The notes: a model not told the origin generated them from the letters alone. Positions 12,211 to 51,685 are shown, counted from the first letter of the stretch. The stretch is DNA of 64,000 nucleotides from an uncultured Acidimicrobiaceae bacterium (GCA_963841155.1 CAWJBM010000002.1:247454-311453); one strand, 5' to 3'. A program made the numbers and translations.

Positions 12211-12234
12211 GTATGTGTGTCGGAGGAATTGACG

Positions 12235-19445: not shown

Positions 19446-19607
19446 GGTTCTGTCCTCCGGTCGGAGCGGTGTTTGGTTGGCACCGCCACCGTGTCCGGCC
19501 GGAGGGCACGAACGGTGGATGTTCAGTGAGGGGTGGGTACCTCTACATGGCCACGAGTGGGTACCTCGTCCTGGCCACACGCGGGTACTTTTTCATGGCC
19601 ACGGACA

Positions 19608-20095
19608 AGACGTGTCCCCCTACGCGTGAGCTGAACGCCCTGGTCAGGCGATTTCGGCCTTGGACCAGGTCGAGGTGTCGACGGAGAGGGCCCGGAGCAC
19701 CTTGGCCTAGAGGGCGCTGCGCCGGTTCACGAGCTTGATCTGGCAGTCGCCGGCGGAGATGTGCTGTAACCGGACCTCTTTCAACACCGAGAGGGCCCGC
19801 CGTGGCGTCATCGACTGGAAGGCCAGGTTGGGATCGGTCAGCTTCGCGTTCACGAGGTCTTGTGCCATGACGGCCTCGATGGTGGCCGCTAGCACGCAGA
19901 GCGCCACGTGTCCGCGCACCCGGGCCTCGGTCCAGTGGAACATCGGCCGCAGCGACAAGAAGTCCCTCATCACCCGGAAGCGGCGTTCGATTGACTGCAG
20001 GCTCTTGTAGTAGCGCAGCACCTGGGCGGCAGAGGCCTCTGAAGTCGTCAGCGATGTCGTGATGACGAGGCGCCCGAAAGGAACAGGTCAGGAAC
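19608..20095 (-). pseudogene. IS1634/IS4-like transposase 3' remnant (copy A)
   Basis: ORF 19707..20021: LRYYKSLQSIERRFRVMRDFLSLRPMFHWTEARVRGHVALCVLAATIEAV... is the C-terminal DDE-E region. DNA-level homologue of 33040..33531 in inverted orientation. The right limit is approximate. Confidence 0.7.
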
Positions 20096-25842: not shown

Positions 25843-27279
25843 GGCTCTTCTCAATGAACTGGGGCGCGTGAACAACTGACCGCGCTCCGATAGGTATCCA
25901 CCGGCGCGGCCAGGGGCCCCGCCATTCTCGTGGTTGTTCGACGACCGAGAGAACTGGAGGACCCCTGACAATGGGCGACGGTACCGAATTCGATGACGCG
26001 CTGTTGGGACTGCGCGGGTTCCGGGTGGTGGCGGTGACCGAAGACGGCGATGAGCTGCTCGTCGGCGTCGAGACGATCCGCCGGGCGGCCGGGTGTCCGA
26101 GCTGTGGCGTGATCGCCAGAACCAAGGACCGCCTCCGGGTGATCATCAGAGACCTGCCGGCCTTCGACCGGCGCGTGCGCCTCGTGTGGTCCAAGCGACG
26201 GTTCTCTTGCCCGGAGCCGGACTGCCCGGTCCAGACCTGGACCGAACACTGCGACGAGCTCCCCGACCGCCGCGTGCTGTCCGCGCGTGCGGGACGTGAG
26301 TGCACGCGAGCGGTTGGCGAAGAAGCGCGTTCAGTCGCCTCGCTCGCACGTTGGCTCGGTGTCTCCTGGGCGACGGTGATGACGGCCGTGCGCGACTACG
26401 GGACACCGCTTGTGGACGACCCGGGCCGGGTCGAGGAGGTGAGCTCGCTCGGCATCGACGAGACGGCGTTTCTGAAGGCGAACGCCGAGCACCCGACGAT
26501 GTACGTCACCGGTCTTGTCGACCTCGAGCAACGAGTGCTCATCGACATGATCGAGGGAAACCGGGCGATCGACGTCTCGCGTTGGCTCTCGAGCAAGGAC
26601 GAGGCCTTCCTGGCCGGCATTACGACCGTCGCCTGCGACCTGCACGAGGGCTACCGGTCCGGGCTGCACCCGCATCTCGACCATGCCCGCCAGGTGGCCG
26701 ATCCGTTCCACGTGGTGGCAGCCGCGAACCGCTGCGTCGATGAGGTGCGCCGCAGGGTGCAAAACGAGCTGTTGGGACATCGCGGTCGAAAGGATGACCC
26801 GCTCTACAAGATCCGCCGGGTGCTGCTCACCGGTTCGGAGCGCCTCAACCAGAGAGGCGTAGACCGCATGGCTCTTGGTCTTCGTCTCGGCGATCCCGAC
26901 GACGAAGTCCTCGGAGCGTGGCTCGCCAAGGAGTACCTGCGCGACGTCTATCTCACCGCTGATCCGAACGAGGCCGCAGTGCTCTTGGACCGGGTGATCG
27001 CAGGTTGCCTCGCGGATGAGGTCGATGAGATCGTCTCTCTCGGCAACACCTTGAAGCACTGGCGCACCCAGATCCTCGCTCACCATCTCACCGGCGCTTC
27101 GAACGGGCCGACCGAGGCGATGAACCTGCTCGTCAAGAAGATCAAGCGTTGCGGGCACGGCTTCAAGAGTTTTAGGAACTACCGCCTACGCGTCCTTTTG
27201 CACTGCGGTGGGATCCAATGGAAGGCTCATCCGGCTACGACAATGCGGGCCCGCTCACCCCAGTTGGTCGCGTAGAGCC
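25843..27279 (+). mobile_element. ISL3-family insertion sequence with 8-bp target duplication
   Basis: IRs are GGCTCTTCTCAATGAACTGGGG.. and ..CCCCAGTTGGTCGCGTAGAGCC. A direct repeat CCATTGCG is present at 25835-25842 and 27280-27287. Confidence 0.9.
25971..27275 (+). CDS. ISL3-family transposase
   Basis: 434 aa. Zinc-finger CPSCG...FSCPEPDC, then ..LGIDETAF..., ..VACDLHEGYR.., ..DPFHVV.., ..SNGPTEAMNLLVKKIKRCGHGFKSFRNYRLRVLL. Confidence 0.9.
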   Translation: MGDGTEFDDALLGLRGFRVVAVTEDGDELLVGVETIRRAAGCPSCGVIARTKDRLRVIIRDLPAFDRRVRLVWSKRRFSCPEPDCPVQTWTEHCDELPDRRVLSARAGRECTRAVGEEARSVASLARWLGVSWATVMTAVRDYGTPLVDDPGRVEEVSSLGIDETAFLKANAEHPTMYVTGLVDLEQRVLIDMIEGNRAIDVSRWLSSKDEAFLAGITTVACDLHEGYRSGLHPHLDHARQVADPFHVVAAANRCVDEVRRRVQNELLGHRGRKDDPLYKIRRVLLTGSERLNQRGVDRMALGLRLGDPDDEVLGAWLAKEYLRDVYLTADPNEAAVLLDRVIAGCLADEVDEIVSLGNTLKHWRTQILAHHLTGASNGPTEAMNLLVKKIKRCGHGFKSFRNYRLRVLLHCGGIQWKAHPATTMRARSPQLVA

Positions 27280-29113: not shown

Positions 29114-30247
29114 ATGCGATTGGGAATACCGAGCGAGACAACGCCCGGCGAGCGCCGGGTCGCGCTCGTCCCCAGCGTCGTCCCAAGGATCACTGCCCTG
29201 GGCCCGAGCGTCGCCATGCAAGCCGGCGCCGGTGCCGCCTCACTGTTCGCCGACGAAGCCTACCTGGCCGCGGGCGTCACGCTGCTGGACGCCCCGACGC
29301 TGTTGAGCACATCCGGGTTCATCTGCAAGGTGCAGCCTCCGAGGTTGGAAGAGGTGGGCCTCATGAGCGAAGGCTCCGGCGTCGTGAGCTATCTCCAGCC
29401 CACTGCCGACCTCGAGCTCATCCGCGCGCTGGTGGACCACCGGATCTCCGCGTTCAGCCTCGACCTGCTGCCTCGGATAACCCGGGCGCAGTCGATGGAC
29501 GTGCTCTCGTCCCAGGCACTGGTCTCGGGCTACCGCGCAGTGCTGTTAGCAGCTGAGCAGCTCCCGAAGTTCTTCCCTCTCTACATGACCGCGGCCGGCA
29601 CGGTGCCGCCCGCCAAGGTGCTCGTGCTCGGTGCCGGCGTCGCCGGGCTGCAGGCGATCGCGACCGCACGCCGCCTCGGCGCGAACGTCCGCGCATACGA
29701 CGTCCGATCAGCAGCGCGCACGGAGGTGAAGAGCCTCGGTGCCGCTTTCGTCGAGCTTGATCTCGAGGCCCAGGAGGGTGAAGGCGGCTACGCCCGGGAG
29801 CAGTCCGAGGACTTCCTGCGCCGCCAGCGTGAGCTCATCGGCAAGGAGGTCGCTGCCGCCGACGTCGTGATCACGACCGCGGCGATCCCCGGCCGCAAGG
29901 CACCGGTGCTGGTCACCGGGGAGATGGTGCACCAGATGGCACTGGGCAGCGTCATCGTCGACCTTGCAGCCGAGACGGGCGGCAACTGCGAGCTCAGCCG
30001 CCCGGGAGAGGATCTCGATGAAGGCGGCGTCACGATCATCGGCGTGAAGAACCTCCCGAGCTCGATGCCCCTGCACGCGAGCTTCCTCTATTCCCGCAAC
30101 ATCGCCGAATTCCTGACGGTGATCGTGAAGGAGGGGGAGTTCGCCCCGGACTTCGACGACGAGATCGTCGCCGGCACGTGCGTCACCCATGCGGGCGAGG
30201 TCCGCCATGCTCCCACCCGCGAACTGCTCGAAGGAGGGACCCAATGA
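29114..30247 (+). CDS. pntAA: NAD(P) transhydrogenase subunit alpha part 1
   Basis: MRLGIPSETTPGERRVALVPSVV.., Rossmann motif VLVLGAGVAGLQAIATARRLGA. ATGA overlap with the next gene. Confidence 0.9.
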   Translation: MRLGIPSETTPGERRVALVPSVVPRITALGPSVAMQAGAGAASLFADEAYLAAGVTLLDAPTLLSTSGFICKVQPPRLEEVGLMSEGSGVVSYLQPTADLELIRALVDHRISAFSLDLLPRITRAQSMDVLSSQALVSGYRAVLLAAEQLPKFFPLYMTAAGTVPPAKVLVLGAGVAGLQAIATARRLGANVRAYDVRSAARTEVKSLGAAFVELDLEAQEGEGGYAREQSEDFLRRQRELIGKEVAAADVVITTAAIPGRKAPVLVTGEMVHQMALGSVIVDLAAETGGNCELSRPGEDLDEGGVTIIGVKNLPSSMPLHASFLYSRNIAEFLTVIVKEGEFAPDFDDEIVAGTCVTHAGEVRHAPTRELLEGGTQ

Positions 30248-30606
30248 TCGCCGTCGCAGCTGGCGGGGACATCCTCTCGCTCATCACCGTGTTCGTGCTT
30301 GCGGCCTTCGTGGGTTTCGAGGTCATCGCCAAGGTACCGAGCACGCTGCATACGCCGCTGATGTCCGGTACCAACGCGATCCACGGCGTCGTGCTCGTCG
30401 GCGCGATGCTCGTCCTCGGCACGGTGCACGGCACCGGGGAGCTGGTACTCGGGTTCGCCGCCGTGGTGCTGGCCACCTTGAACGTCGTCGGTGGCTTCGT
30501 GGTGACCGACCGGATGCTCGAGATGTTCAAGGTCCGCAAGCCGCCCAAAGTCTCGACGGAAGCGGCCGGCGCGGCCGCGCCTAGCACCGAGGGGGACCCG
30601 AAGTGA
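30244..30606 (+). CDS. pntAB: NAD(P) transhydrogenase subunit alpha part 2 (membrane)
   Basis: 120 aa, hydrophobic. ..FVGFEVIAKVPSTLHTPLMSGTNAIHGVVLVGA.. is conserved PntAB sequence. Confidence 0.85.
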   Translation: MIAVAAGGDILSLITVFVLAAFVGFEVIAKVPSTLHTPLMSGTNAIHGVVLVGAMLVLGTVHGTGELVLGFAAVVLATLNVVGGFVVTDRMLEMFKVRKPPKVSTEAAGAAAPSTEGDPK

Positions 30607-31988
30607 GCCTCGGTACGGGCATCCGCCTCGCCGACTTGATCGCGGCGATCTGCTTCATCCTCGCGCTACGCGGCCTTACGGGGCCCAAGACCGCCCGCTA
30701 CGGGAACCTCCTCGGCGCCGTTGGCATGGCCCTCGCCATTGCGATCACCTTCGCTACCAACGGCTTGCACCACTTCCTGTTGATCGCCGTAGCAATGCTC
30801 GTCGGTGCGGCCATCGCGGTACCCGCGGCACGCCTGGTCAAGATGACCGCGATGCCGCAGATGGTGGCGGCCTTCAACGGTGTCGGCGGTGGCGCGGCCG
30901 CGCTGATCGCCCTCTCCAAGTTCCTCACTGCCCCGACCGGCTCACTCGCCGTCTACCAGGTCGTCGAGGTCCTCCTCGGCGTGGTCATCGGCTGCGTCTC
31001 GTTCTCCGGAAGCTGCATCGCCTTCGCGAAGCTCCAAGAGCTCATGACCGGCAGGGCCATCACCTACCCTGGCCAGCAGGTCTGGAACGCCATCGTGGGC
31101 GTGGGCATACTCGGGCTGGCGATCACGCTTTGCGTCAGCTCAACCAGCTGGCTCATCGTGATCGTTCTCGGCCTCGCTTTGATATTCGGTGTCGCGTTCG
31201 TCCTGCCCATCGGCGGCGCGGACGTGCCCGTCCTGATCTCGTTGCTGAACTCGTTCACTGGTCTGGCTGTCGCGGCGAGCGGCTTCGTGCTCCACTCGGT
31301 CGTGCTCGTCGTTGCGGGTACCCTCGTCGGCGCCTCGGGCACGCTCCTCACCCAGAAGATGAGCCAGGCGATGGGACGCTCGCTCCCGAACATCCTGTTC
31401 AGCGCTTTCGGTTCGGTCATCACGGCCACCGGTGGCGCCGAGGGCGACACGACCCGCAGCGTCCGGTCCGCGAGCGCCGAGGATGTGGCCATCCTGCTCG
31501 CGTATGCGAACAAGGTGATCATCGTCCCCGGCTACGGGCTCGCCGTCGCCCAGGCTCAGCACACGATCCGCGAGCTTGCCGACCTGCTCGAGTCGCGTGG
31601 CGTCGAGGTCATCTACGCCATCCACCCAGTCGCGGGCCGCATGCCGGGCCACATGAATGTCCTGCTCGCGGAGGCCAACGTCCCCTACGAGCAGTTGAAG
31701 GAAATGGACGAGGCGAACCCGGAGTTCCAGTCCGCCGACGTGGCGTTGGTGGTCGGCGCCAACGACGTCGTCAACCCGGCAGCCAAGAACAACCCGGGGA
31801 GCCCCATCTACGGTATGCCGATCCTCGCCGTCGACGAAGCCCGCAACATCGTGTTCATGAAGCGCTCGATGCGCCCCGGCTTTGCCGGCATCGACAACGA
31901 ACTTCTCTTCGACCCGAAGACCACGATGTTGTTCGGTGACGCCAAGGACTCGCTGACGAAGGTCGTGGCCGCGGTCAAGGCGCTCTGA
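30603..31988 (+). CDS. pntB: NAD(P) transhydrogenase subunit beta
   Basis: 461 aa. Multi-TM N-half and NADP(H)-binding C-half ..IIVPGYGLAVAQAQH..HPVAGRMPGHMNVLLAEA..VVGANDVVNPAA.. GTGA overlap with pntAB. Confidence 0.9.
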   Translation: MSLGTGIRLADLIAAICFILALRGLTGPKTARYGNLLGAVGMALAIAITFATNGLHHFLLIAVAMLVGAAIAVPAARLVKMTAMPQMVAAFNGVGGGAAALIALSKFLTAPTGSLAVYQVVEVLLGVVIGCVSFSGSCIAFAKLQELMTGRAITYPGQQVWNAIVGVGILGLAITLCVSSTSWLIVIVLGLALIFGVAFVLPIGGADVPVLISLLNSFTGLAVAASGFVLHSVVLVVAGTLVGASGTLLTQKMSQAMGRSLPNILFSAFGSVITATGGAEGDTTRSVRSASAEDVAILLAYANKVIIVPGYGLAVAQAQHTIRELADLLESRGVEVIYAIHPVAGRMPGHMNVLLAEANVPYEQLKEMDEANPEFQSADVALVVGANDVVNPAAKNNPGSPIYGMPILAVDEARNIVFMKRSMRPGFAGIDNELLFDPKTTMLFGDAKDSLTKVVAAVKAL

Positions 31989-32269: not shown

Positions 32270-33531
32270 ATGACCAACGTTTGCGGCAGTACCAGGCTCT
32301 CCGTTACGACCTCACATCGAGCTACTTCTAGACGGTCGCCATCGGACGTAGGGTCTTTCCCTCCCTCGTCTTCGGCTACAGCCGCGATCACCGGGGCGAC
32401 CGGCCGCAGATCATGATCGGCCTGCTCGTGACCTCCGACGGCATCCCGATCGCCCATCACGTCTTCTCGGACAACACGGCCGATGTCTTGATACCTCCGG
32501 GCGTGACGGAGTACCTGAAGTCATGCTTCGTCGTCGGCCAGATCGCCCTTGTCGCGGACCGGGGCCTCATCTCAGGAGACAACCTGGCCCTGGTCGTCGC
32601 GCACGGCTTCGACCACGTGCTGGCCACTCGCCTTCACCACGACGGCGTTAGAGCCGTGCTCGAGATGGCGAACGTGCCGAGTTCGTCGTGAGAAGCGGTC
32701 CCCGAGGCGCTGACCTTGTGTGCCGATCTCACCCATCAGGATCGGCGCTTTGTGGTCGTGTTCTCTCCCGTGCGCTGTTTCCGGGACCGGTATCGTCACC
32801 TCGCCCTGTGCGCCCGCATCGAAGACGGACTCATCGCCATCGAAGAGAGAGTTCGGGCGGGAAAGCTCGCCGACCCGGCCAACACCGGCGCCGCGGCCGA
32901 CCGTGTCCTTTCCTCCTCGCCGGTCGGGTGCTGCTTTGCCGTCACGATCCGGAAGGGCTTCTTATCCTGGGACTTCGACCAAGAAGCGCGCAGATACGAC
33001 GAGGGGCACCTGTGCGGGCGCTTTGTCATCACGGCATCGCTGACGACTTCGCAGGCCTCTGCCGCGCAGGCGCTGCGCTACTACGAGCCTGCAGTCAGTC
33101 GAACGTCGCTTCAGGGTGATGGAGGACTGCTTGTCGCTGCGGCCGATGTTCAACTGGACCAAGGCCCGGGTGCGCGGACACGTGGCACTCTGCGTGCTGG
33201 CGGCCACCATCGAGGCCGTCATGGCACAAGTCCTCGTGACGCGAAGCTGGCCGATCCAGTCCTGGCCTTGCAGTCGATGACGCCAAGGCGGGCCGTTTCG
33301 GTGTTGAAAGAGGTCCGGTTACAGCACATCTCCGCCCACGACAAGCAGATCAAGCTCGTGAACCGGCAGTGCCCTCCAGGCCAAGGTGCTCCGGGCCCTT
33401 GCCGTCGACACCTCAACCTGGTCCGAGGCCGAAATCGGCTGAGCTGGGCGAACAGGCCCCGCGTAGGGGGAACACGTATCGTCCGCGACCCCATCTACCT
33501 GGGACGACAGGAAACTCGCGCCAAACTCCGG
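32270..33531 (+). pseudogene. IS1634/IS4-like transposase remnant (copy B) with in-frame stop and frameshifts
   Basis: ..YDLTSSYF* then ..QIMIGLLVTSDGIPIAHHVFSDNTADV..ALVADRGLIS. (compare the full-length 49937..51685). The C-terminal region is readable only by switching frames. The terminus ..CGCGCCAAACTCCGG is shared with copy A. The left limit is approximate. Confidence 0.7.
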
Positions 33532-33670
33532 CCCGCGAAGCAGAAGGTCTTTCAGTCCGGGACTTTAGGCCCTACGCACGGTCACGAATCGAGCGCAACA
33601 TCAAGGTGAGCACAAATGGAGGGGAGTGACCCACGGAAGACACCCGTTGTTCGAATCGCGGAGGCGCGTT

Positions 33671-34720
33671 ATGTCGGCGTTCGTGACTGCCAGTCGTGTG
33701 GACACCGGGCAAGATTCACTGCCCGTTGTTGGTGACGACGGCTTTTTCGGTGTCCGTTTCGAGTCGATCGGCGGGCTCGGTGCCCACCTCGCCGGTCGGA
33801 TCCTCGCCGAAGCCTGTGTTTTGGGGCAGGGCTTCAATGGCGCGCACTTCTCCTCGTACGGCTCAGAGAAGAAGGGCACGCCGGTAAAGTCGTTCGTCCG
33901 TATCTGCCCGGGTGATCGGGAGGTGCGGACGAGTAGCCCGATCGAGAGCCCCCAGGTGGTTGCTGTCTTCCACGAAGCCCTGGTGGGCTCACTCGACGTT
34001 GCCGCCGGCTTGCCCGCGACAGGCACCCTGATCATGAACAGTCGTAAGACTCCGGAGGAGATTCGGGACCTGCTCGGTCTGAGCTCCGGAACGGTAGCTG
34101 TGGTCGACGCCCTCGGCATCGCGCTCGAGGAGAAGACGCGCATAAACACCGCCATGCTCGGCGCCGTCGCCCGCGCATGTCCCTTCCTCGACCCCGAGGC
34201 GATAAAGAATTCGATCCGTCAGAGCCTGTCGGCCCGGTACGCCTCCTTGGTGGAAGCCAACCTTCGCACCTTTGACCGCGGCTATAGCGAACTGCGGAGC
34301 ATCACTTGGCCTGCCGCTCCTGGCGACACCGGGCGGCCGGTACAGCGGGCCGCGCCTGCATTCGGCTACCTCGACGCGACGATCGGCGGTGCGATCCTCG
34401 ACGCGGGCAACAGCATCCGCAAGAACCTGACCACGTCGCGGCAGGGCTTCCTGCCCGATTACGACCCGGCCACGTGCGTGCACTGCGGGATCTGCGACAT
34501 CGTCTGTCCCGATCTCTGTTTCGCCTGGTCTAACGACCCCGACAACGAGCCCGCAGTGCGCCTGCTCGGCATCGATTACCACTATTGCAAGGGCTGCTTG
34601 AAGTGCGTTGACGCCTGCCCGACGGGCTCGCTCACCGAGATTCGCGAAGAAGACGGCTGGGCGGAGGAGCATCGAGTCCCGCTCTTCGCCTGGCTCGAGA
34701 CCAAGAAGGGAGCTGCGTGA
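33671..34720 (+). CDS. 2-oxoacid:ferredoxin oxidoreductase, fused gamma + delta (4Fe-4S ferredoxin) subunit
   Basis: Gamma domain: VRFESIGGLGAHLAGRILAEA..FSSYGSEKKGTPV. Delta domain: CVHCGICDIVCPD...YCKGCLKCVDACP. The start is uncertain (ATG 33671 or GTG 33626). Confidence 0.8.
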   Translation: MSAFVTASRVDTGQDSLPVVGDDGFFGVRFESIGGLGAHLAGRILAEACVLGQGFNGAHFSSYGSEKKGTPVKSFVRICPGDREVRTSSPIESPQVVAVFHEALVGSLDVAAGLPATGTLIMNSRKTPEEIRDLLGLSSGTVAVVDALGIALEEKTRINTAMLGAVARACPFLDPEAIKNSIRQSLSARYASLVEANLRTFDRGYSELRSITWPAAPGDTGRPVQRAAPAFGYLDATIGGAILDAGNSIRKNLTTSRQGFLPDYDPATCVHCGICDIVCPDLCFAWSNDPDNEPAVRLLGIDYHYCKGCLKCVDACPTGSLTEIREEDGWAEEHRVPLFAWLETKKGAA

Positions 34721-37011
34721 TGGTCGTCGCAACGCCCACACTGGAGCCGATTACCGGGTCCCGCCAGGTTGTCGGGTTTCGCACCGGCAACGAGATGGCT
34801 GCGATCTCCGCTAAGCAGATCAACTTCCACCTGATGGGGTACTTCCCGATCACCCCCTCGACAGAGGTAGCCGAACTGGTTGACGAGATGAAGGCCGCCG
34901 GCGAGCACGACATCGTGATGGTGGCCGCCGACGGCGAGCACTCAGCAGGTGGGATCTGCTTCGGGGCCGCGGCGGGAGGCGGCCGCGTCTTCAACGCGAC
35001 GAGCGCGCAGGGCCTGCTGTTCCAGCTCGAGGAGCTACCTGTGCAATCGGGGTCGCGCTATCCGATGCTGCTCGACCTCGCGACCCGGACGGTGAGCGGG
35101 CCGCTTGACATCCGTGGCGATCACTCGGACGTGTACTTCGCCTTGAACGCGGGCTGGCTGATCTTCATGGCTCGCGACCCACAGGCCGTCTACGACCTAA
35201 ACCTCATCGCCTTGCGTGTCGCCGAGCGGGCTGACGTCCGCCTACCGGCGATCGTGGCTTTCGACGGCTTCTTCACGAGCCACCAAAAGCGCCGAGTCTT
35301 CACCTTTGCGGAGGACTTCACGGTTCAGGAGTGGCTGGGCCCCGTGGCCGAGCCGGTGAAGGCACTCGACCCGCGGCATCCCGTGACGATCGGTCCGTAC
35401 ATGAACGACCCCGATCTGATCAACAACAAGTACCAGCTCGAGCGGGCCATGGACGCCGCGATGGCTGCGATCCCGGAGGTTGTCGCTGAGTACGAGGCCT
35501 TGAGCGGCCGGCGCTACGACCCGGTCGACCTCTATCGCATGGAGGACGCCGAGGTCGCCGTTCTCCTGATCAACTCGGCGGCGCAGACCGCAAAGGACGT
35601 GGTCGACCGGCTTCGCTCCCAGGGAATCCGAGCCGGTGTGCTCAGCCCCAACCTGATCCGGCCCTTCCCCGCAGACACCATCCGTGACGCCCTGCGAGGC
35701 GTAAAGGCGGTTCTCATCGGAGAGCGCGCCAGCTCCTACGGAGCACACGGCGCCAACATCACTCACGAGGTGAAGTCCGCTCTCAAGGACGACCCAGAGA
35801 ACCACACCCTCTGCCTGAGCCGCGTCTACGGTCTCGGTGGCCGTGATTTCTATGCGGAGGACGCCGAGGCGTTCTTCCGCCTCACGCTGCAAGCGGTCGA
35901 GAGTGGCACCGTCGACGTGCCGTTTGACTACTACGGCGTGGAACCGGGCGATCCCGAGAAGTCTCGGCCACTGAACGGCACGCCGCCGCTCACTCGCGAG
36001 GAGGTGACGAGCGGGCTGCTCCAGATAAGGCCACGCCCAGACGGCAGGCTGGATGTGGAAGCACCGCCCTATTGGGAGCTCGCGACCAAGCCCAAGCGAG
36101 TCACCCCGGGCCACGGCGCCTGCCCCGGCTGTGGCATATTTCCGGCGCTCGACCAGTTCCTGCGTGGTATCGAGGGCGACGTCGTCGTGCTGTACCAGAC
36201 AGGCTGCGCGATGGTCGTCAGCACCGGTTACCCATTCACGTCACACCGGGTCACGTACCTGCACAACCTGTTCCAGAACGGCGCAGCCGCGCTGAGTGGA
36301 CTCGTCGAGGTGTTCCACGAGCGGGTACGCCGCGGTGAGCTGCCCGCTGACACGGACATCACGTTCCTGATGGTCACCGGGGACGGCGGCATGGACATCG
36401 GCATGGGTGCGGCTATCGGTGCCGCACTTCGCGTGCACGGGATGATCATGATCGAGTACGACAACCAGGGTTACATGAACACGGGCAGCCAGCTCAGCTA
36501 CTCGACGCCCCTCGGACACATGACATCGACAAGTCATGTCGGTCCCGGAGAGCAGGGCAAGGCCTTCCACCACAAGGACACCCCGCAGATCATGGCGGCG
36601 ACCAACATCCCGTACGTCTTCACGGGCGTGGAGGGCTATCCGGACGATCTCGTCGCCAAGGCGGCGAAGGCCCAGTGGTACTCGCATCACGTGGGCACGG
36701 TCTACGGCAAGGTGCTGATCACCTGCCCACTCAATTGGAAGGTCGAGGACCGCGTAGGCGTCGAGATTTCACAGGCGGCAGTGGACTCCTGCTTCTTCCC
36801 TCTCTACGAGATCGAGCGCGGCGTCACTCACATCACCTACGACCCGGAGCCCATCGGGCGGCGGACGCCCGTCGCCGATTGGCTGAAGCTGATGGGGAAG
36901 ACGAAGCACCTCTGCCAGGCTGGCAACGAGGCGACGCTCGCCGCGATTGAGGCCGAGATCCAGCGTCGCTGGCTGCGGCTCAAGGCGATGAATGACAACC
37001 CTCTCCTCTGA
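34717..37011 (+). CDS. 2-oxoacid:ferredoxin oxidoreductase, fused alpha + beta (TPP-binding) subunit
   Basis: Alpha domain: YFPITPSTEVAE...GGRVFNATSAQGL. Beta domain: GHGACPGCG...VTGDGGMDIGMGAAIGA...YDNQGYMNTGSQ. ATGA-type overlap with the upstream gene. Confidence 0.85.
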   Translation: MMVVATPTLEPITGSRQVVGFRTGNEMAAISAKQINFHLMGYFPITPSTEVAELVDEMKAAGEHDIVMVAADGEHSAGGICFGAAAGGGRVFNATSAQGLLFQLEELPVQSGSRYPMLLDLATRTVSGPLDIRGDHSDVYFALNAGWLIFMARDPQAVYDLNLIALRVAERADVRLPAIVAFDGFFTSHQKRRVFTFAEDFTVQEWLGPVAEPVKALDPRHPVTIGPYMNDPDLINNKYQLERAMDAAMAAIPEVVAEYEALSGRRYDPVDLYRMEDAEVAVLLINSAAQTAKDVVDRLRSQGIRAGVLSPNLIRPFPADTIRDALRGVKAVLIGERASSYGAHGANITHEVKSALKDDPENHTLCLSRVYGLGGRDFYAEDAEAFFRLTLQAVESGTVDVPFDYYGVEPGDPEKSRPLNGTPPLTREEVTSGLLQIRPRPDGRLDVEAPPYWELATKPKRVTPGHGACPGCGIFPALDQFLRGIEGDVVVLYQTGCAMVVSTGYPFTSHRVTYLHNLFQNGAAALSGLVEVFHERVRRGELPADTDITFLMVTGDGGMDIGMGAAIGAALRVHGMIMIEYDNQGYMNTGSQLSYSTPLGHMTSTSHVGPGEQGKAFHHKDTPQIMAATNIPYVFTGVEGYPDDLVAKAAKAQWYSHHVGTVYGKVLITCPLNWKVEDRVGVEISQAAVDSCFFPLYEIERGVTHITYDPEPIGRRTPVADWLKLMGKTKHLCQAGNEATLAAIEAEIQRRWLRLKAMNDNPLL

Positions 37012-37017
37012 AAATGG

Positions 37018-37860
37018 ATGGCTATGGACACGACTGCACGGATCATCGAAAAGCAAGATTTGACGGGGATAACCAAGCTGTTCGTCGTGCACGCTCCGCT
37101 CGTAGCGCGAAACGCTGCTCCCGGCCAGTTCATTATTCTCCGAGTCACCGAGACTGGTGAACGGATCCCCATCAGTCTCACGGACTTCGACCGGGACACC
37201 GGGACGGTCACGATCGTCGTCCAGCAGGTCGGTCGTACGAGCGCTCTCGTCAACGCTTTGGACCTGGGTGACGATTTCCTGGACTTCGTCGGTCCGCTCG
37301 GTGACCCAGTGCCACTTCCCGAGGACGGTCACGCAGTGCTCATCGGCGGTGGGTTCGGTACGGGCGCGCTGTTCCCGTTGGCGCGCGAGCTGCGCAAGCG
37401 AGGCGTGAGGGTTTCGTCCATCATCGGCGCTCGGACACGCTCCCTGTTGATCCTCACTGAAATGCTGTCAAGGCAGAGCGACGAGTTGCACGTGTGCACC
37501 GACGACGGCTCAGTCGGCTACCACGGCTTCGTTACCGGCCGCTTGGAGGAGCTCATGGACGCCGGAGCGGGATTCACGCACTGTTTCGCTGTCGGCCCGA
37601 TGCCGATGATGCGCGCCGTCGCGACCACTACGCAAGAGCGCGGCCTGCCCGCCATGGTCTCGCTCGATCCGCTCATGGTCGACGGGACGGGCATGTGCGG
37701 CGGTTGTCGCGTGAGTGTTGGCGGCAAGTCGCTCTTTGCCTGCGTGGACGGCCCCTTCTTCGACGCGCACCAAGTCGACTTCGACGTGGCGGACGATCGT
37801 TTGAGGATCTACAGGGAGCAGGAAAAGGTTGCCTGTGAGCTGACAGGACTGGAGAGGTAG
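37018..37860 (+). CDS. nfnA: PyrK-like FAD/NAD(P)-binding [2Fe-2S] protein (NfnA-type subunit)
   Basis: 280 aa. ..GQFIILRVTETGERIPISL.., ..LIGGGFGTGALFPLA.., C-terminal GTGMCGGCRV....ACVDGP. Confidence 0.75.
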   Translation: MAMDTTARIIEKQDLTGITKLFVVHAPLVARNAAPGQFIILRVTETGERIPISLTDFDRDTGTVTIVVQQVGRTSALVNALDLGDDFLDFVGPLGDPVPLPEDGHAVLIGGGFGTGALFPLARELRKRGVRVSSIIGARTRSLLILTEMLSRQSDELHVCTDDGSVGYHGFVTGRLEELMDAGAGFTHCFAVGPMPMMRAVATTTQERGLPAMVSLDPLMVDGTGMCGGCRVSVGGKSLFACVDGPFFDAHQVDFDVADDRLRIYREQEKVACELTGLER

Positions 37861-37865
37861 GCGAC

Positions 37866-39608
37866 ATGCCCATCGTGTATCCACACAAGACGGAGATGCC
37901 CGTCCGAGACCCTCAAGCGCGGCGACGGAGTTGGGACGAGGTCGCCGAGGGCTACACGGTGGAGCGCGCGATCGCCGAGGCCCGTCGCTGTCTCAACTGC
38001 CAGGACCCCGTCTGCGAGCTTGGGTGCCCTGTCAACGTGCCGATACGGGAATTCGTACGCTGCGTCGCCATAGGGGACTTTGACGGAGCCGCCAGCGCGA
38101 TCCGCCGGCGCAACCTGCTACCGGCGATCTGCGGACGCGTGTGTCCGGTCGAGCATCAGTGCGAGGCCCGCTGCGTCCTGTTTCCCCACCAGGATCCTGT
38201 GGGAATTGGCCGGTTGGAGCGGTTTGCTGCCGACTGGGTCCGTGAGCACGGCAACGGTGGCGAGAGCGCTGCACAGCGGGTGTGGCGGGAACAGAAGGTT
38301 GCGATCGTCGGATCCGGTCCGGCTGGACTCACAGTAGCCAGCGACCTCGCTCAGCTCGGCTACCCGGTCTCGATCTTCGAGGCTCTGCACGCCTTCGGCG
38401 GCGTGCTCCGTTACGGGATTCCTCAGTATCGTCTGCCGAAGGAGATCGTCGACGAAGACGTCGAGCACCTCAAGGCGCTCGGCGTGGAGTTCGTGCGCGA
38501 CGTGATCATCGGCAAAACCGTCACCATCGACCAGCTCTTCGACGAGCTCGGTTACTCGGCCATATTCGTAGGTACAGGTGCTGGTTCGCCCATTTTCATG
38601 AACATTCCCGGGGAGAACCTGAAGGGCATCTACTCGGCCAACGAGTTTCTGACGCGTGTCAACCTGATGAAGGCGTACGCGTTCCCCGAGTACGACACGC
38701 CCGTCTACAGGCCGAGGCGAGCCGCAGTGATCGGTGCCGGCGACACCGCGATGGATGCAGTGCGGTGCTCGATCCGCCTCGGCGCAGAAGAGGGCCACAT
38801 CGTATACCGCCGTTCGGAGAACGAGAAAGGTGCACGAGCAGAGGATTTCGAGCGGGCGCGCGATGAGGGCGTGATCTTCGACTGGCTCACGCTTCCCCAG
38901 CGTTACCTTGGTGACGAGAACAACTGGGTACGGGGCCTCGAGTGCATTCGCACCGAGCTCGGTGAACCCGATGAATCGGGTCGCCGCCGCCCGGTTCCCG
39001 TGCCGGGTTCAGAGTTCGTTATAGAGGCCGACCTCGTCGTCATAGCCCTCGGCACGAACCCGAACCCACTCGTGCCGCATTCGACCCACGGTCTCGATGT
39101 CGACTCTCACGGATGCATCATCGCCGACCCGGAAACGGGTGCCACGAGCCGCGAGGGCCTGTTCGCCGGTGGCGACATCGTGACCGGCGCCGCCACCGTG
39201 ATCCTGGCAATGGGGGCAGGCCGCAAGGCCGCGACCGCCATCCATGAATACCTGCAAGAACAACACACAGAGAAAGTAGCGGCGCGAGGCGAAGCTGCCC
39301 AGGCTCAGGTCCAGACAAGCGACGATGCCGTGGCTTCTCGACTGGATGTCTCATTCGCCGAACATGAGGTCGAGGAACGCCACCGAGGCTACGGGGACGG
39401 GACCGTATGGGCACGCGACTACGCAACCGCCAATGAGCTGCGCGGCTTCGTGGAGAGCTTCCGACGCCGAACCGATAGCGCCTCGGAGATAGTCAAGAAC
39501 GGGCTAGAGCACATGAGCGTTGAAGGCTCCTCCGACTTCGAAGGTCCGTACTGGGAAGGATTCCTCGAAGGAGCCGAAGAGGTGTTCATAGAGGGGACCG
39601 GCAGTTGA
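37866..39608 (+). CDS. nfnB: GltD/NfnB-type NADPH-dependent oxidoreductase with an unassigned ~115-aa C-terminal extension
   Basis: CLNCQDPVCELGCPV...CGRVCPVEHQCE (two Fe-S motifs), VAIVGSGPAGL, GGVLRYGIPQYRLPK, VIGAGDTAMD, GGDIVTGAATV. The usual family end (..AIHEYL) is followed by about 115 acidic residues. Confidence 0.8.
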   Translation: MPIVYPHKTEMPVRDPQARRRSWDEVAEGYTVERAIAEARRCLNCQDPVCELGCPVNVPIREFVRCVAIGDFDGAASAIRRRNLLPAICGRVCPVEHQCEARCVLFPHQDPVGIGRLERFAADWVREHGNGGESAAQRVWREQKVAIVGSGPAGLTVASDLAQLGYPVSIFEALHAFGGVLRYGIPQYRLPKEIVDEDVEHLKALGVEFVRDVIIGKTVTIDQLFDELGYSAIFVGTGAGSPIFMNIPGENLKGIYSANEFLTRVNLMKAYAFPEYDTPVYRPRRAAVIGAGDTAMDAVRCSIRLGAEEGHIVYRRSENEKGARAEDFERARDEGVIFDWLTLPQRYLGDENNWVRGLECIRTELGEPDESGRRRPVPVPGSEFVIEADLVVIALGTNPNPLVPHSTHGLDVDSHGCIIADPETGATSREGLFAGGDIVTGAATVILAMGAGRKAATAIHEYLQEQHTEKVAARGEAAQAQVQTSDDAVASRLDVSFAEHEVEERHRGYGDGTVWARDYATANELRGFVESFRRRTDSASEIVKNGLEHMSVEGSSDFEGPYWEGFLEGAEEVFIEGTGS

Positions 39609-43583: not shown

Positions 43584-45278
43584 ATGATCATCGCTGTGCA
43601 CGCCCGACGATTGTCCTTCCTCGTCGGCGCTGTCGCCCTCGTGGTCGTGCTCGTTGTGACCCTCGTGTCCCTGGGTGTCGGCACCAACAACTCGACGACG
43701 CGGAGCGGCAAGTCGACCAGCACCACTACGTCCGGCTCGACCAAGACGAAGCCCGCAGGGGCCCAGCCCAACCCGGCGCACAGCCACACGTTTCTCGGCC
43801 CCTACGGGGTCGAGGCGTCGTGGGTGATCGCCGAGAACAAGCTGCCGGGCACGACGGACTGGCAGATCCGGGACGAGCCGAGTAGGGGCTCGATCGCGGG
43901 TTTCTCGAACAAAACGTATGCCGCGGCAGGCAACCACGTGACCCTGTATGTGAGCAGCACGGCTCCGCGCTTTCACGTAGAGGCCTACCGGATGGGCTAC
44001 TACGGGGGAAAGGGAGGCCGCCTCGTCTGGAGATCGGCTGAGGTGACAGGGCGCGACCAGCCGAACTGCCCGCTGACGCAGGGGGTCAACATGGTGGCAT
44101 GCGACAACTGGAAGCCATCGCTCAGGTTTCGGGTTACCTCGGCCTTCCTCCCCGGCGAGTACCTCTTGAAGCTCGTCGGCAGCGACAGCGCCCAAAGCTA
44201 CGTCCTGTTGACGGTGTGGGACCCCTCGAGCCACGCGGCCTACCTGTTCAAGGGGGACGTGTACACCGAGGAGGCCTGGAACACCTACGGCGGCTACGAC
44301 TTCTACCAGGGGCTCGGGAACTGCGCGCCCACATACCCCGTGTGCAACCGGGCGCGAGTCGTCTCGTTCGACCGGCCCATAGCCACCGGAGACGGTGCCT
44401 CCGACTTCCTCGGCAATGAGTACCCGCTGTTGAGCCTCATGGAAGCACATGGCCTCGACGTCACTTACGCCGACGACATCACCGTGGAGCAGCACCCCTC
44501 TATTCTCCTCCAGCATCGGGCGCTGCTTTCGCTCGGCCACGACGAGTGCTGGTCCCTCGCCGAGCGCCTCGCCGCCGACCGGGCGCAGGACCACGGCGTG
44601 AACATGATCTTCTTCGGGGCGAGCGCCGTGCTTCGCCACGTGCGCCTACAGGCGTCGCCGTTCGGGCCCGACCGCGAGCTGGTCGACTACCGCGACTCCA
44701 GCGAGGACCCGCTCAACGGCAAGGGGAACCCACTCGAGGTCACCGGCAACACCTGGTTCAACCCGCCGACGGACTGGCCAGAGAGCGGCTTCACCGGCGA
44801 GATGTACGCCGGCTTCCTCGAACCCGACTCTCCAAGCGCGCCGTTCGTCGTCGAGGATGCGAACGCCTGGATCTTCAAGGGAACAGGGCTGCACGACGGC
44901 TCCGCGGTTCCGGGTGTCATCAATACCGACTTCGACCATGTGGCCCCGTCATGGCCCATGCCATCTGATCTTCAGGTGCTCGGTCACTCGCCGATCCCGT
45001 TGTCCGAGGTGCAGACGGACCTTGGGCAGTGGGGGACGTACACGTACTCGGACGCGACGTACTACACGACTGCTTCCAGCAAGGCCGGGGTCTTCGATAG
45101 CGGCAACAACAACTGGATCTTCTCCCTGCGCCCTTGTCCGGCGAGCGCGGTCATGTGCTCGGCAGGGGTCATGCAGAAGATCACGGGCAACCTACTCTGG
45201 CTTTTCGGCCAGGGCCCGGCCGGCCGCCTCGTTCCGTCGGTGACAAACTGGCGCCAGGTGGTCCCCGCCGGCTCGTGA
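43584..45278 (+). CDS. N,N-dimethylformamidase beta-subunit-like family protein, membrane-anchored
   Basis: TM anchor, then ENKLPGTTDWQI..FHVEAYRMGYYGGKGGRLVW...VVSFDRP...LSLGHDECWS...GVNMIFFGASA... The order and motifs are typical of this family. Confidence 0.65.
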   Translation: MIIAVHARRLSFLVGAVALVVVLVVTLVSLGVGTNNSTTRSGKSTSTTTSGSTKTKPAGAQPNPAHSHTFLGPYGVEASWVIAENKLPGTTDWQIRDEPSRGSIAGFSNKTYAAAGNHVTLYVSSTAPRFHVEAYRMGYYGGKGGRLVWRSAEVTGRDQPNCPLTQGVNMVACDNWKPSLRFRVTSAFLPGEYLLKLVGSDSAQSYVLLTVWDPSSHAAYLFKGDVYTEEAWNTYGGYDFYQGLGNCAPTYPVCNRARVVSFDRPIATGDGASDFLGNEYPLLSLMEAHGLDVTYADDITVEQHPSILLQHRALLSLGHDECWSLAERLAADRAQDHGVNMIFFGASAVLRHVRLQASPFGPDRELVDYRDSSEDPLNGKGNPLEVTGNTWFNPPTDWPESGFTGEMYAGFLEPDSPSAPFVVEDANAWIFKGTGLHDGSAVPGVINTDFDHVAPSWPMPSDLQVLGHSPIPLSEVQTDLGQWGTYTYSDATYYTTASSKAGVFDSGNNNWIFSLRPCPASAVMCSAGVMQKITGNLLWLFGQGPAGRLVPSVTNWRQVVPAGS

Positions 45279-49936: not shown

Positions 49937-51685
49937 CTACGCGTAGCCGAGGCGATGCGGGACACCGAGCAGCTCGAAGGCTCGGCGCTGGATAGGGGTC
50001 GGTGTGGTGATCACCGTGAAGACGGGCAGATCGGTCTTGAGCGGCTGGACTCTGTTGGCGGCGATCGTGGCCAGGTCCTCGAGCAAGGTGGCGAAGCAGT
50101 GGACCGGCTCGTTGTGCACGGTGCGCTTGGTGCGGACCTTTCTCACTGCTCTCTCCGGGCGCAACGCGGGGGCGAGCGGGCTCGTGCGTTGCGCCTCGGC
50201 GCCCTGGTGGTGGTCGTCCTTGAGGAGCATCGGTGCGAGTCGGCGCTCCATGTGCCAGGTGATGTAGTAGGAGAGCATGCGCAGGAACACGTGAGCGCGG
50301 ATGCGCTCTTCGCTCCGGTGGCGGATCGGGCGGATGTCGAGGTCGGTGTCGAACCCCCGGAAGACCCGCTCGACTTTCTCCAGGGCCTTGTAGGAGGAAA
50401 CCACCTCATCTTTGCCGAACGCTTCTTCGCCAAGGCTCGTGCGCAGCACGTAGACCCCGTCGAGAGCGGCCTCGGCGGCGATCTTCGCCTCGTCGCGGTT
50501 GAACGAGAAGACGTCGTCATCGATCTCGAGAACGAAGTGCTTGCCCATCTTGTGGTGGTTAATGACTTTGCCGACCCGCAGTGCGATCTTGTCCTTGCCC
50601 CGTAACGGCCGGCTCTGGCGTCGCACGGCTGCGGCGATGGTGGCCAGCTCGGCCTCGGTAGAAGTAAGCAGCGACTCTCGCTTCCTGGCCCGCTGTTCAG
50701 CGAGCAGCGGGTTCTTGCTGGCGACGAGGCGTTCTCCCGGGTAGTCGGCGTGCGCGATCTCGAAAAGGTCGGAGGTGTCGAACAAGGAGAGCTGGATGGC
50801 ACCAGATTCGACCAGGGCCTTGATCTGCGGTGGGCGCAGTGCGGCGATGAACTCGAGCTGTGCGGGGATGACGCCGTCTTGGTGGCGGGCCTTGGTCAGC
50901 ATCCCCCGGTCGCCCACCAGGGCGACACGCGAGAGGGAGAAGCGCTCTCTCAGCTTTTGCACCTGGGAGGCGACCGTGGCGGAGTCGCCGGTGTTGGCCT
51001 TGAAGACCTCGACGGCCACGGGGATGCCCTCTTTGGTGGCCAGCAAGCCGTAGACGATCTGGAGCCGGCCGCGCGCACCGTCTTTCGCATGGCCGAGCGC
51101 ACCGAGCAGCCAGGTCCTGCCCTCAAAGGCGGCCGAGGAGACATCATGGAGCAGGAGCGTGCCGTCTTTGAGGTGCCGGGCGGCCAGGGCGTCCTCGATC
51201 GCCGCCTGACGAGGTCCCAGCCAGTCCATGGCCGCGTAGAGGTCGTCCTCGTCGACGCCGGTCAGAGAGAGCACCTCGCCGAGCGAGCTCGAGACCGTCT
51301 CGGCCCGCAGCCCGCGCGCCAAGGCGAACTCCGAGGGCGCCTCGATCACCTGGGCCACGACCATCGCGACCACCAGGTCACGCGAGCGTGAGGGGACATG
51401 GTCGATGAGCTCTTCGAGGCCCAGGTTCTTCAGCGTCCCCAGCACCGCGGCGACCTGACCGTGGGGAAGGCTGCGGATGACGTCGAAGCTCCCCGGGAGG
51501 CTGGCTGTGATCGCACGCCCCTTGAGCACGGCTGCGAGCGCGTCGACCTTCTCCTCGGGCCAGCGCGAGAGGTTGGCCAGCGTCCGGTTCTTGACCTTGC
51601 CCCCCTCGCGGTAGCTTTCCCGCAGCAGGATCGCCGGTGGTGAACCCCGGTTAGGCACCTTGGCGATGTACATGTCGACCATCAT
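49937..51685 (-). CDS. IS1634-family transposase (full length); IS ends not resolved
   Basis: 582 aa. MYIAKVPNRGSPPAILLRESYREGGKVKNRTLANLSRWP..., ..ALVGDRGMLT.., C-terminal ..YKALEKVERVFRGFDTDLDIRPIRH... An AT-richer 5' UTR lies at 51686-51760. Confidence 0.85.
   Translation of the reverse strand: MMVDMYIAKVPNRGSPPAILLRESYREGGKVKNRTLANLSRWPEEKVDALAAVLKGRAITASLPGSFDVIRSLPHGQVAAVLGTLKNLGLEELIDHVPSRSRDLVVAMVVAQVIEAPSEFALARGLRAETVSSSLGEVLSLTGVDEDDLYAAMDWLGPRQAAIEDALAARHLKDGTLLLHDVSSAAFEGRTWLLGALGHAKDGARGRLQIVYGLLATKEGIPVAVEVFKANTGDSATVASQVQKLRERFSLSRVALVGDRGMLTKARHQDGVIPAQLEFIAALRPPQIKALVESGAIQLSLFDTSDLFEIAHADYPGERLVASKNPLLAEQRARKRESLLTSTEAELATIAAAVRRQSRPLRGKDKIALRVGKVINHHKMGKHFVLEIDDDVFSFNRDEAKIAAEAALDGVYVLRTSLGEEAFGKDEVVSSYKALEKVERVFRGFDTDLDIRPIRHRSEERIRAHVFLRMLSYYITWHMERRLAPMLLKDDHHQGAEAQRTSPLAPALRPERAVRKVRTKRTVHNEPVHCFATLLEDLATIAANRVQPLKTDLPVFTVITTPTPIQRRAFELLGVPHRLGYA

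Follow-up and report, generated by a model that had tools for sequence, protein, structure and literature searches.

A two-polypeptide 2-oxoacid:ferredoxin oxidoreductase encoded in a predicted operon with an NfnAB-type enzyme in uncultured Actinomycetota

Gene content and layout of the operon

This report concerns four genes on the plus strand of a 64,000-nucleotide (nt) stretch of DNA from an uncultured Acidimicrobiaceae bacterium, a soil or bog actinobacterium (GCA_963841155.1, CAWJBM010000002.1:247454-311453; the whole stretch is called the window hereafter), which lie in the same direction at 33671-39608 and are predicted to encode a 2-oxoacid:ferredoxin oxidoreductase (OFOR) packed into two fusion polypeptides, gamma-delta and alpha-beta, followed by the two subunits of an NfnAB-type enzyme. 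An earlier note on this DNA had described four overlapping or abutting genes at this place, and our open reading frame (ORF) and domain calls agree with it apart from the first start, which was corrected to 33671. The genes are spaced by a 1-nt overlap between gamma-delta and alpha-beta and by gaps of 6 nt before NfnA and 5 nt before NfnB, and the region can be read as one translationally coupled, presumably co-transcribed, operon for two soluble redox enzymes. The coordinates of these genes and of neighboring features are collected in Table 1; labels such as L001 or L009 refer to the related genome loci which were compared with the window.

The start of the gamma-delta gene is most likely the ATG at 33671 rather than the ORF start at 33626; this ATG lies 6 nt after a GGAGG, the ribosome-binding site and the ATG are invariant across six related strains, and the public gene calls give the same 349 amino acids (aa). 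The alpha-beta gene most likely starts at the ATG at 34720, where TGATG produces the 1-nt overlap with the preceding TGA, giving a product of 763 aa. For NfnA, the public call is 278 aa, with which the gap after alpha-beta would be 12 nt, and NfnB has 580 aa rather than about 470, since its C-terminus is extended by a module of about 100 aa. The operon is taken to end at 39608 because the next gene on its 3' side, which codes for a methyltransferase, is convergent. ORFs on the opposite strand across the operon were found to be without support and are as expected from a G+C content of 64% alone. The operon is not a sequencing artefact: 13 contigs assembled independently of one another encode proteins identical to those of the window, and at least 10 cluster members have an NfnB of 580 aa.

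Table 1. Coordinates, strand and assignment of the operon and of neighboring features in the window
Feature	Position	Strand	Assignment
pntAA	29114-30247	+	AlaDh_PNT_N/C
pntAB	~30244-30606	+	PNTB_4TM
pntB	30603-31988	+	PNTB domain
IS-transposase remnant (IS, insertion sequence)	33015-33485	+	89% identical, inverted, to 19602-20076 (transposase C-terminal fragment)
Conserved upstream region	33532-33670	+	about 140 nt; putative promoter or 5' leader; ends in GGAGG, 6 nt before ATG 33671
Gamma-delta ORF	33626-34720	+	Pfam POR gamma domain PF01558, 103 bits; two 4Fe-4S motifs
OFOR gamma-delta fusion	33671-34720	+	349 aa; predicted coenzyme A (CoA)-binding gamma domain (III) and two-[4Fe-4S] delta domain (V)
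Alpha-beta ORF	34717-37011	+	POR_N and PFOR_II (alpha, residues 23-403), linker, TPP_enzyme_C (beta, residues 458-757)
OFOR alpha-beta fusion	34720-37011	+	763 aa; domains I-II, conserved linker of about 55 aa, predicted thiamine pyrophosphate (TPP)/[4Fe-4S] domain VI
NfnA ORF	37018-37860	+	DHODB_Fe-S_bind; NCBIfam NF004862, 345 bits vs cut-off 220; PyrK/NfnA-type FAD/NAD/[2Fe-2S]
NfnA small subunit	37018-37860	+	280 aa; predicted FAD, NAD(H) site and [2Fe-2S] with Asp+3Cys
NfnB ORF	37866-39608	+	Fer4_20 and Pyr_redox_2; TIGR01316, 555 bits vs cut-off 472; GltD/NfnB-type
NfnB large-subunit core	37866-39305	+	predicted two [4Fe-4S] clusters, FAD and NADP(H) site
NfnB C-terminal module	39306-39608	+	about 100 aa; in-frame fusion; acidic, Cys-free, predicted three-helix bundle
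Single-chain pyruvate:ferredoxin oxidoreductase (PFOR)	51882-55535	+	domain and family-model matches
DHOD-like FMN protein	55535-56581	+	NF005741, 407 bits; TAATG overlap, translationally coupled to PFOR

The OFOR fusion proteins

The earlier note had read the first two genes as genuine fusions, with missed frameshifts named as one way in which this could fail, and the reading held. The 120 best database matches of the alpha-beta protein all have lengths of 737-778 aa and align to 97-100% of the window protein, and the fusion was counted in more than 120 protein clusters. The fusion is encoded at 74 genome loci in Actinomycetota, Chloroflexota, Acidobacteriota, Elusimicrobia, Pseudomonadota, and Bacillota, with a gamma-delta gene directly upstream of it at every locus where upstream DNA is present, and the linker motifs VPFDYYG ... 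PKRxxPGHGACP are kept from the window and other Actinomycetota to Paenibacillus. Both fusions are real and ancient. Their origin in a frameshift or a missed stop codon was ruled out, given that the fusions and the linker are kept in every homologue as well as across many independent assemblies.

Every cofactor motif of an OFOR is recognizable by alignment across the two fusion proteins. In the gamma-delta protein, the delta domain (V) carries two CxxCxxCxxxCP motifs, CVHCGICDIVCP and CKGCLKCVDACP, and the gamma domain (III) falls into the pyruvate/2-ketoisovalerate family (TIGR02175, 110 bits against a cut-off of 81; PF01558 as in Table 1); the best matches of this protein in the PDB were Thermotoga maritima PorC (2raa), the gamma and delta subunits of the Methanosarcina acetivorans PFOR (9bt4_E/G), and the gamma-delta-fused subunit of oxalate oxidoreductase (OOR; 5c4i_B). 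The alpha-beta protein matches the Pfam families POR_N (177 bits) and PFOR_II (83 bits), and TPP_enzyme_C is present. Its alpha half has the YPITP motif as YFPITPST, and R124, within the loop RTVSGPLDIRGDHSD, aligns with the carboxylate-binding Arg of M. acetivorans PorA (9bt4_B) and of the OOR alpha subunit (5c4i_A). In the beta half, the TPP motif VTGDGGMDIG...EYDNQGYMNTG is invariant in 66 family members, and the four proximal-cluster Cys, in ACPGC, TGCAM, and ITCPLNW, align with those of M. acetivorans PorB (9bt4_C).

Comparison with the NCBIfam models gave the highest scores for the PorA/PorB type (289 and 277 bits for the alpha half, and 217 bits for the beta half), followed by VOR (200 and 183 bits for the alpha and beta halves, respectively), Pad (198 and 143 bits), and OOR (196 and 145 bits), while the KOR models scored 54-70 bits for the alpha half and the IOR models matched the gamma domain only, and weakly. 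The closest solved structure is the four-subunit M. acetivorans PFOR 9bt4 (192 bits to the alpha subunit 9bt4_B, and 150 bits to the beta subunit 9bt4_C), with oxalate oxidoreductase next. Taken together, the subunits match models of the PorA/PorB/PorC/PorD type best. By these matches the OFOR belongs to the POR/VOR four-subunit class, yet forms a distinct uncurated family within it, whose alpha-beta members are named in the public records as 'transketolase C-terminal domain-containing protein' or 'TPP-dependent enzyme'.

The NfnAB pair

The two downstream genes had been called an NfnA-type and a GltD/NfnB-type subunit in the earlier note, an assignment which the alignments with solved structures bear out. 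Residues 7-464 of NfnB align with T. maritima NfnB (4ylf_B, 553 bits) and Pyrococcus furiosus NfnI-L (5jca_L, 479 bits), NfnB scoring lower against NfnII (5vj7_A, 446 bits), and NfnA aligns with P. furiosus NfnI-S (5jca_S, 258 bits), T. maritima NfnA (4ylf_A, 232 bits), and NfnII (164 bits), so that both subunits score closer to the bifurcating NfnI than to NfnII. The [2Fe-2S] motif of NfnA is kept (DGTGMCGGCRV...FACVDGP), as are the motifs for two [4Fe-4S] clusters in NfnB, with eight Cys and a Glu-containing motif; the segments CLNCQDPVCELGCP and CGRVCPVEHQCEARC align with 4ylf_B. We take the cluster ligands to be Asp plus three Cys in NfnA, and eight Cys plus Glu in NfnB, as in the known structures.

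A recent study by Huang et al. 2025 (PMC12221290) gave three discriminators which separate true NfnB from monofunctional NfnB-like ferredoxin:NADP+ reductases, namely a long N-terminus (with Cys42/Cys45 in PfNfnI), Arg333 of PfNfnI-L, and an nfnA gene directly upstream, the last of which is also described in PMC6405883. In the window NfnB has the long N-terminus, with C42 and C45 as its first Cys, Arg324 aligns with PfNfnI-L Arg333 and Arg189 with Arg201 in the alignment with 5jca_L, and the nfnA-nfnB gap is 5 nt, compared with 2-7 nt in most relatives. The pair thus carries all three features of the bifurcating type, although bifurcation itself is not a property which can be read from sequence.

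The C-terminal module of NfnB (residues ~481-580) is marked by the motifs E-E-x-x-R-G-x-x-D-G-x-x-W-A-x-D-Y-A-T-x-x-E-L and PYW-x-GF-x-x-GA-E-E-V. It is fused in frame to NfnB in the window, in the strains of L001-3, L055, and L062, and in L004, L007, and L009; it forms a separate small ORF after nfnB in L006, L012, L038 (11649-11948), L071, and L072, is duplicated in tandem in L064 (11613-12032), stands at the end of a Cys-rich protein in L058 (12242-12463), and does not occur in the operons of Thermoleophilia and Proteobacteria. An exhaustive profile search of 1.84 billion proteins returned only 41 representative clusters, which makes the family a rare one; some of these clusters carry ribbon-helix-helix-like or GntR-like N-termini, and a stand-alone copy, 63% identical, sits in an unrelated neighborhood. 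Its AlphaFold2 model is a three-helix bundle with a pLDDT of 73. A known domain was rejected as the identity of the module, with no Pfam match of the sequence and no PDB fold match of the model. The module is not a ferredoxin, and it is probably not a dedicated docking adaptor either, a role which we rejected since the module is not exclusive to this operon.

Conservation of the linkage

The earlier note had staked its reading on whether the gene order is conserved in relatives. To assess this, the four window proteins were compared with the 74 loci by tblastn. The order gamma-delta, alpha-beta, NfnA, NfnB was found at 26 loci, made up of all 23 Actinomycetota loci, with an alpha-beta identity of 71-97%, and three metagenome-assembled genomes (MAGs) of Pseudomonadota, with an identity of 57-62%, and synteny is thus conserved in two phyla. 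A reverse look-up starting from three NfnB homologues (77-79% identity) led in all three cases to the same OFOR-Nfn operon. The gaps between alpha-beta and NfnA and between NfnA and NfnB are a few nt in most of 29 related loci. An atypical linkage was seen at the Elusimicrobia locus, where an NfnA-like gene lies directly upstream of gamma-delta. In a neighbor-joining tree, the linked loci formed two clades, one of Actinomycetota and one of Proteobacteria, with the unlinked Chloroflexota between them and Bacillota outside; by this topology, either Chloroflexota lost the Nfn link or the link arose more than once.

Clustering of ORFs across all loci showed nothing shared besides the four genes and the C-terminal module. 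A gene of about 239 aa without Pfam match lies directly upstream of gamma-delta in the Thermoleophilia-like Nfn-linked clade only (L076, 2086-2805; L056, 5218-5934; L061, 5218-5931; L077, 2177-2866), and not in the window. The Nfn-free neighborhoods inspected (Paenibacillus L026 and Dehalococcoidia L018) gave no clue to function or substrate. At one locus, that of Paenibacillus tarimensis (L026), a convergent gene about 1 kb downstream of the Nfn-free OFOR (10313-11290, minus strand) encodes a 325-aa thioredoxin-reductase-like flavoprotein (Pyr_redox_3, 289 bits; YpdA/FNR-like).

Upstream region and genomic surroundings

The leader at 33532-33670 is the only portion of the spacer between pntB and the OFOR genes that is common to relatives, and it is very strongly conserved among six strains, as in CCGGGACTTTAGGCCCTACACACGG and GCAACATCAA. 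No recognized operator was found in it, and it may be the binding site of some not-yet-recognized regulator. A structured RNA was rejected, with no covariation in the conserved 140 nt (covariation term +1.28); a regulatory RNA upstream was likewise rejected after 28-41 kb had been searched against Rfam without a match at E <= 0.1, and a Rex operator upstream was rejected as well, the only matches in the window being weak and far off, at 8055 and 12272.

The earlier note had placed PntAB just upstream of the operon and a PFOR with a DHOD-like partner 12 kb downstream, and had considered the whole an unusually dense set of redox-balancing genes. Both neighbors are present. The genes pntAA-pntAB-pntB (29114-31988, plus strand) encode a genuine proton-translocating NAD(P) transhydrogenase and form a separate upstream transcription unit. 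As for the density, it held in part only: pntAB lies beside the operon only in the closest Acidimicrobiaceae relatives, L001, L002, L011, and L055, which form one genus-level group, and in the window the two units are separated by a 1.64-kb spacer with the IS-transposase remnant; moreover, the 12 kb between the operon and the PFOR hold a transposase gene and unrelated methyltransferase, glycosyltransferase-like, dimethylformamidase-like, and DeoC-type aldolase genes, whereas a PFOR/DHOD-like pair stands directly beside the OFOR-Nfn operon in L009, a Jatrophihabitans-like MAG (11784-16291, minus strand), and in L005 (5-1755).

The arrangement of PFOR and DHOD-like protein suggests a second partnership of an OFOR with a flavoprotein. 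Another was seen in L010, a Nocardioidaceae MAG, in which a KorAB-like two-subunit OFOR lies convergent to the OFOR-Nfn operon (11714-16212, minus strand), accompanied by a 543-aa GltD-like protein whose C-terminal two-cluster ferredoxin domain is reminiscent of Azoarcus KorC. The clustering of OFOR and flavoprotein modules is therefore recurrent, though in the window its precise form is shaped by mobile elements. This genome region has undergone rearrangement, which bears on any argument from gene proximity.

Some further features of the surroundings were recorded. Mobile-element genes are dense (15006-17336, 17985-19580, 21159-22577, 25971-27275, and 49937-51685) and include a serine recombinase, a probable IS21-type transposase, identified by visual inspection of its translation, and DDE transposases of the ISL3 and IS4-like groups. 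The spacer between pntB and the operon holds a second short repeat (33472-33531 and 13391-13450), and a 297-aa ORF called there in public assemblies (32716-33609) has no family match and overlaps the IS remnant. Between the operon and the PFOR, a 564-aa protein (43584-45278) matches PF20254 (309 bits), the family for the C-terminal domain of the N,N-dimethylformamidase beta subunit.

Proposed coupling and alternative explanations

The reading which we prefer, and hold to be probable though well short of certain, is that the fused OFOR is redox-coupled to NfnAB, so that electrons from a 2-oxoacid and from NADH would be passed reversibly to NADPH. The OFOR, using TPP and CoA, would convert a small 2-oxoacid to an acyl-CoA and CO2, and two low-potential electrons would leave it by way of the single [4Fe-4S] cluster of the beta domain and the two of the delta domain, to be accepted by the iron-sulfur clusters of NfnB; NfnA would take a hydride from NADH, and the two streams would merge at the NfnB FAD and reduce two NADP+. 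The net reaction would be 2-oxoacid + CoA + NADH + 2 NADP+ -> acyl-CoA + CO2 + NAD+ + 2 NADPH. Working near equilibrium, the system could also run backward, with NADPH-driven reduction of ferredoxin feeding a reductive carboxylation. As no ferredoxin gene lies nearby, the carrier between delta and NfnB would be a ferredoxin from another place in the genome, or else the fused delta domain would serve in its stead. The order of the genes, the two fusions, the motifs for cofactors, the placement in families, and the synteny are established by the sequences; we infer the co-transcription, the electron path, the substrate, the direction in vivo, and the carrier, whether ferredoxin or direct contact. 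The dedicated route from 2-oxoacid through ferredoxin to NADPH, which the earlier note had proposed, is in this light plausible. Pyruvate is our best guess for the substrate, with a confidence that falls a little short of even.

Several observations weigh against this reading and should be set beside it. About 44 loci have no Nfn gene in their flanks (Chloroflexota/Dehalococcoidia, one Acidobacteriota, Thermaerobacter, Bacillus, and about 40 Paenibacillus), and because the same OFOR family occurs there without an Nfn neighbor, the OFOR does not need Nfn; judged by gene order, the coupling of OFOR and Nfn is a trait of certain clades rather than an obligatory one. Across the linked loci, the identity values of the four genes rise and fall together (r = 0.93-0.97), which speaks for the coupling but is equally expected from shared ancestry alone. 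No ferredoxin gene was found in the 64-kb window, nor, up to 7 kb from the operon, in 28 related loci. Scans for promoters and terminators gave counts no higher than in shuffled sequence, and since these scans were uninformative, the case for co-transcription is made by the gene spacing and nothing else. As for the substrate, the alpha-beta protein reaches none of the equivalog cut-offs for POR, VOR, OOR, Pad, KOR/OGOR, or IOR (289 bits against 590 for alpha and 217 against 405 for beta), the active-site loop of alpha, RxVSGPLDI[R/H/L][G/C]DHSD, is typical of the family and fits no verifiable substrate-specific pattern, and a canonical PFOR is encoded in the same window, which argues that pyruvate may not be the substrate of the fused OFOR.

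The alternative that survives best, although we think it rather unlikely, is that the four proteins form one '2-oxoacid:NAD(P)+ oxidoreductase' complex which works without free ferredoxin, the delta domain standing in for ferredoxin and docking on the distal [4Fe-4S] cluster of NfnB. It would account for the lack of a stand-alone ferredoxin in the window and the 28 linked loci, the translational coupling of the four genes suggests stoichiometric production, the neighboring OFORs are also paired with flavoproteins (PFOR and DHOD-like protein in the window, L009, and L005; KorAB-like OFOR and KorC-like GltD/ferredoxin protein in L010), and the Azoarcus KGOR with its GltD-family subunit is a precedent. 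On the other hand, the T. maritima and P. furiosus enzymes, which are free-standing, can be aligned with NfnA and NfnB over their whole length, and no additional docking element is seen in the window proteins; the only extra piece is the C-terminal module, which is found in unrelated contexts and is missing from the Thermoleophilia and Proteobacteria operons; besides, ferredoxin genes are commonly encoded elsewhere in genomes.

A mainly reversed operation, in which NfnAB would bifurcate electrons from NADPH to reduced ferredoxin and NADH and the OFOR would act as a synthase that makes a 2-oxoacid from acyl-CoA and CO2, is in our judgment unlikely. Nfn is reversible and works near equilibrium (PMC6405883), and in the closest relatives, where pntAB lies directly upstream (the window, L001, L002, L011, and L055), PntAB would keep NADPH reduced at the expense of the proton-motive force; in addition, PMC11697166 describes an isolate of Acidimicrobiia which assimilates CO2 through the reversed oxidative tricarboxylic acid (TCA) cycle and whose most abundant transcripts include those for POR and OGOR. 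However, the adjacency of pntAB is limited to one genus-level group and is broken by the IS remnant in the window, the POR of that study is most likely of the nifJ type and not the fused enzyme, and the direction cannot be read from sequence alone.

A further and rather speculative extension, which we would not rate as likely, is that aerobic or micro-aerobic Actinomycetota charge ferredoxin by means of this operon, a device hitherto missing, which in the closest relatives would work together with the upstream pntAB. PntAB would over-reduce NADP+ with the proton-motive force, NfnAB would bifurcate NADPH to reduced ferredoxin, or would reduce the delta domain directly in a four-protein complex, and the fused OFOR together with the neighboring PFOR and KOR enzymes would carboxylate acyl-CoAs. 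This extension is drawn from two points in PMC11697166 (2024), where the source of reduced ferredoxin in the CO2-fixing isolate is not addressed, and where the comparative table gives porA in a few Acidimicrobiia genomes and, in the excerpt, zero for porB in all values listed; porA without porB would fit an alpha-beta fusion. If true, it would explain where respiring Acidimicrobiia which run the reversed oxidative TCA cycle obtain their low-potential electrons, and a bifurcating enzyme thought to be nearly absent from aerobes would be central to soil actinobacterial carbon metabolism.

It is more doubtful that the Nfn-like pair is non-bifurcating and that, as a ferredoxin:NADP+ reductase of the simple kind or an enzyme resembling Xfn or sulfide dehydrogenase, it only reoxidizes the acceptor of the OFOR. 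Reviews point out that bifurcating activity cannot be assigned to Nfn homologues from sequence alone, and P. furiosus NfnII is 70% identical to NfnI and yet behaves differently (PMC6405883). Nevertheless, the three features that distinguish NfnB from monofunctional reductases were all found, NfnI is nearer than NfnII for both subunits (479 vs 446 bits, and 258 vs 164 bits), and NfnA is there with its NAD(H), FAD, and [2Fe-2S] motifs intact.

Finally, that there is no specific partnership at all, with NfnAB a general redox balancer which happens to share an operon with the OFOR in one genome radiation, would agree with the many differing neighborhoods of nfn genes elsewhere (PMC6405883) and with the Nfn-free OFORs of Bacillota and Chloroflexota, but is improbable, as order and few-nt spacing are kept in two phyla over a range of alpha-beta identity from about 97% to about 57%, the Elusimicrobia locus independently puts an NfnA-like gene directly upstream of the same OFOR, and the reverse look-ups from NfnB always returned the OFOR.

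Comparison with known systems

A literature search returned no paper describing a two-polypeptide gamma-delta plus alpha-beta OFOR or a conserved OFOR-NfnAB operon; of the several gene maps in the review PMC6405883, one has nfn adjoining a PFOR gene, a feature on which the review does not comment further. Surveys of bifurcating enzymes describe Nfn as nearly absent from aerobes (PMC6085437, PMC6405883), while here it is fixed in many soil or bog Actinomycetota (Acidimicrobiia, Thermoleophilia, Nocardioidaceae, and Jatrophihabitans-like MAGs), each time linked to the OFOR. This raises the question of how low-potential electrons are balanced or generated in these organisms, whether by using 2-oxoacids as a source of NADPH under hypoxia or by using NADPH to reduce ferredoxin for the assimilation of CO2 (cf. 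PMC11697166 for Acidimicrobiia). The operon offers a testable handle on the low-potential electron metabolism of abundant soil actinobacteria, and cultured Paenibacillus, which carry the Nfn-free version of the OFOR, offer an easy route to its substrate.

With the NfnAB of T. maritima and P. furiosus the window pair shares the nfnA-nfnB order with a gap of few nt, the [2Fe-2S] and [4Fe-4S] ligands, the FAD and NAD(P) motifs, the long NfnB N-terminus, and the Arg333 equivalent, with scores of 232-553 bits. It differs from them in being linked behind an OFOR in an operon, in having an orphan module of about 100 aa on or after NfnB, and in its host, a soil or bog actinobacterium and not a classical strict anaerobe. 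The OFOR shares domains I, II, III, V, and VI and the cofactor motifs with PorABCD/VorABCD (M. acetivorans 9BT4, T. maritima PorC 2RAA), from which it differs in that four subunits are compressed into two and no equivalog cut-off is reached.

The gamma-delta fusion is shared with the oxalate oxidoreductase of Moorella thermoacetica (5C4I), whose 'delta' subunit, 5c4i_B, aligns over both window domains and is the only solved precedent of a gamma-delta fusion among the structures matched. Unlike the window enzyme, OOR has separate alpha and beta subunits, its scores are below those of POR, and 5c4i_A reads YPIRP where the window has FPITP; in OOR an Arg presumably replaces the Thr of the YPITP motif.

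Three further systems carry OFOR chemistry through to a pyridine nucleotide. The eukaryotic pyruvate:NADP+ oxidoreductase (PNO), a functional analogue, is a PFOR fused to a flavoprotein of the cytochrome-P450-reductase type, which is unrelated to Nfn. The NADH-dependent phenylglyoxylate dehydrogenase PadEFGHI, curated in NCBIfam, is likewise a functional analogue, with the Pad models scoring 100, 198, and 143 bits against the gamma, alpha, and beta parts of the window enzyme, far below the Pad equivalog cut-offs of 300-700 bits. In KorABC, the 2-oxoglutarate:NADP+ oxidoreductase of Azoarcus evansii, OFOR electrons reach NADP+ through an iron-sulfur flavoprotein of the GltD/NfnB family, as stated in PMC10134865, citing Ebenau-Jehle 2003; that enzyme is of the two-subunit KOR type, with no delta domain, and has one flavoprotein, no NfnA, and no second nucleotide site, whereas the window OFOR is predicted to be of the POR/VOR type with a delta domain and its partner a two-subunit NfnAB, and it cannot be counted as an Azoarcus-type KorABC. 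In general, the components come from known families, and what is new is that the OFOR is arranged in two polypeptides and, in uncultured Actinomycetota, shares a conserved operon with NfnAB, together with the presence of the orphan module.

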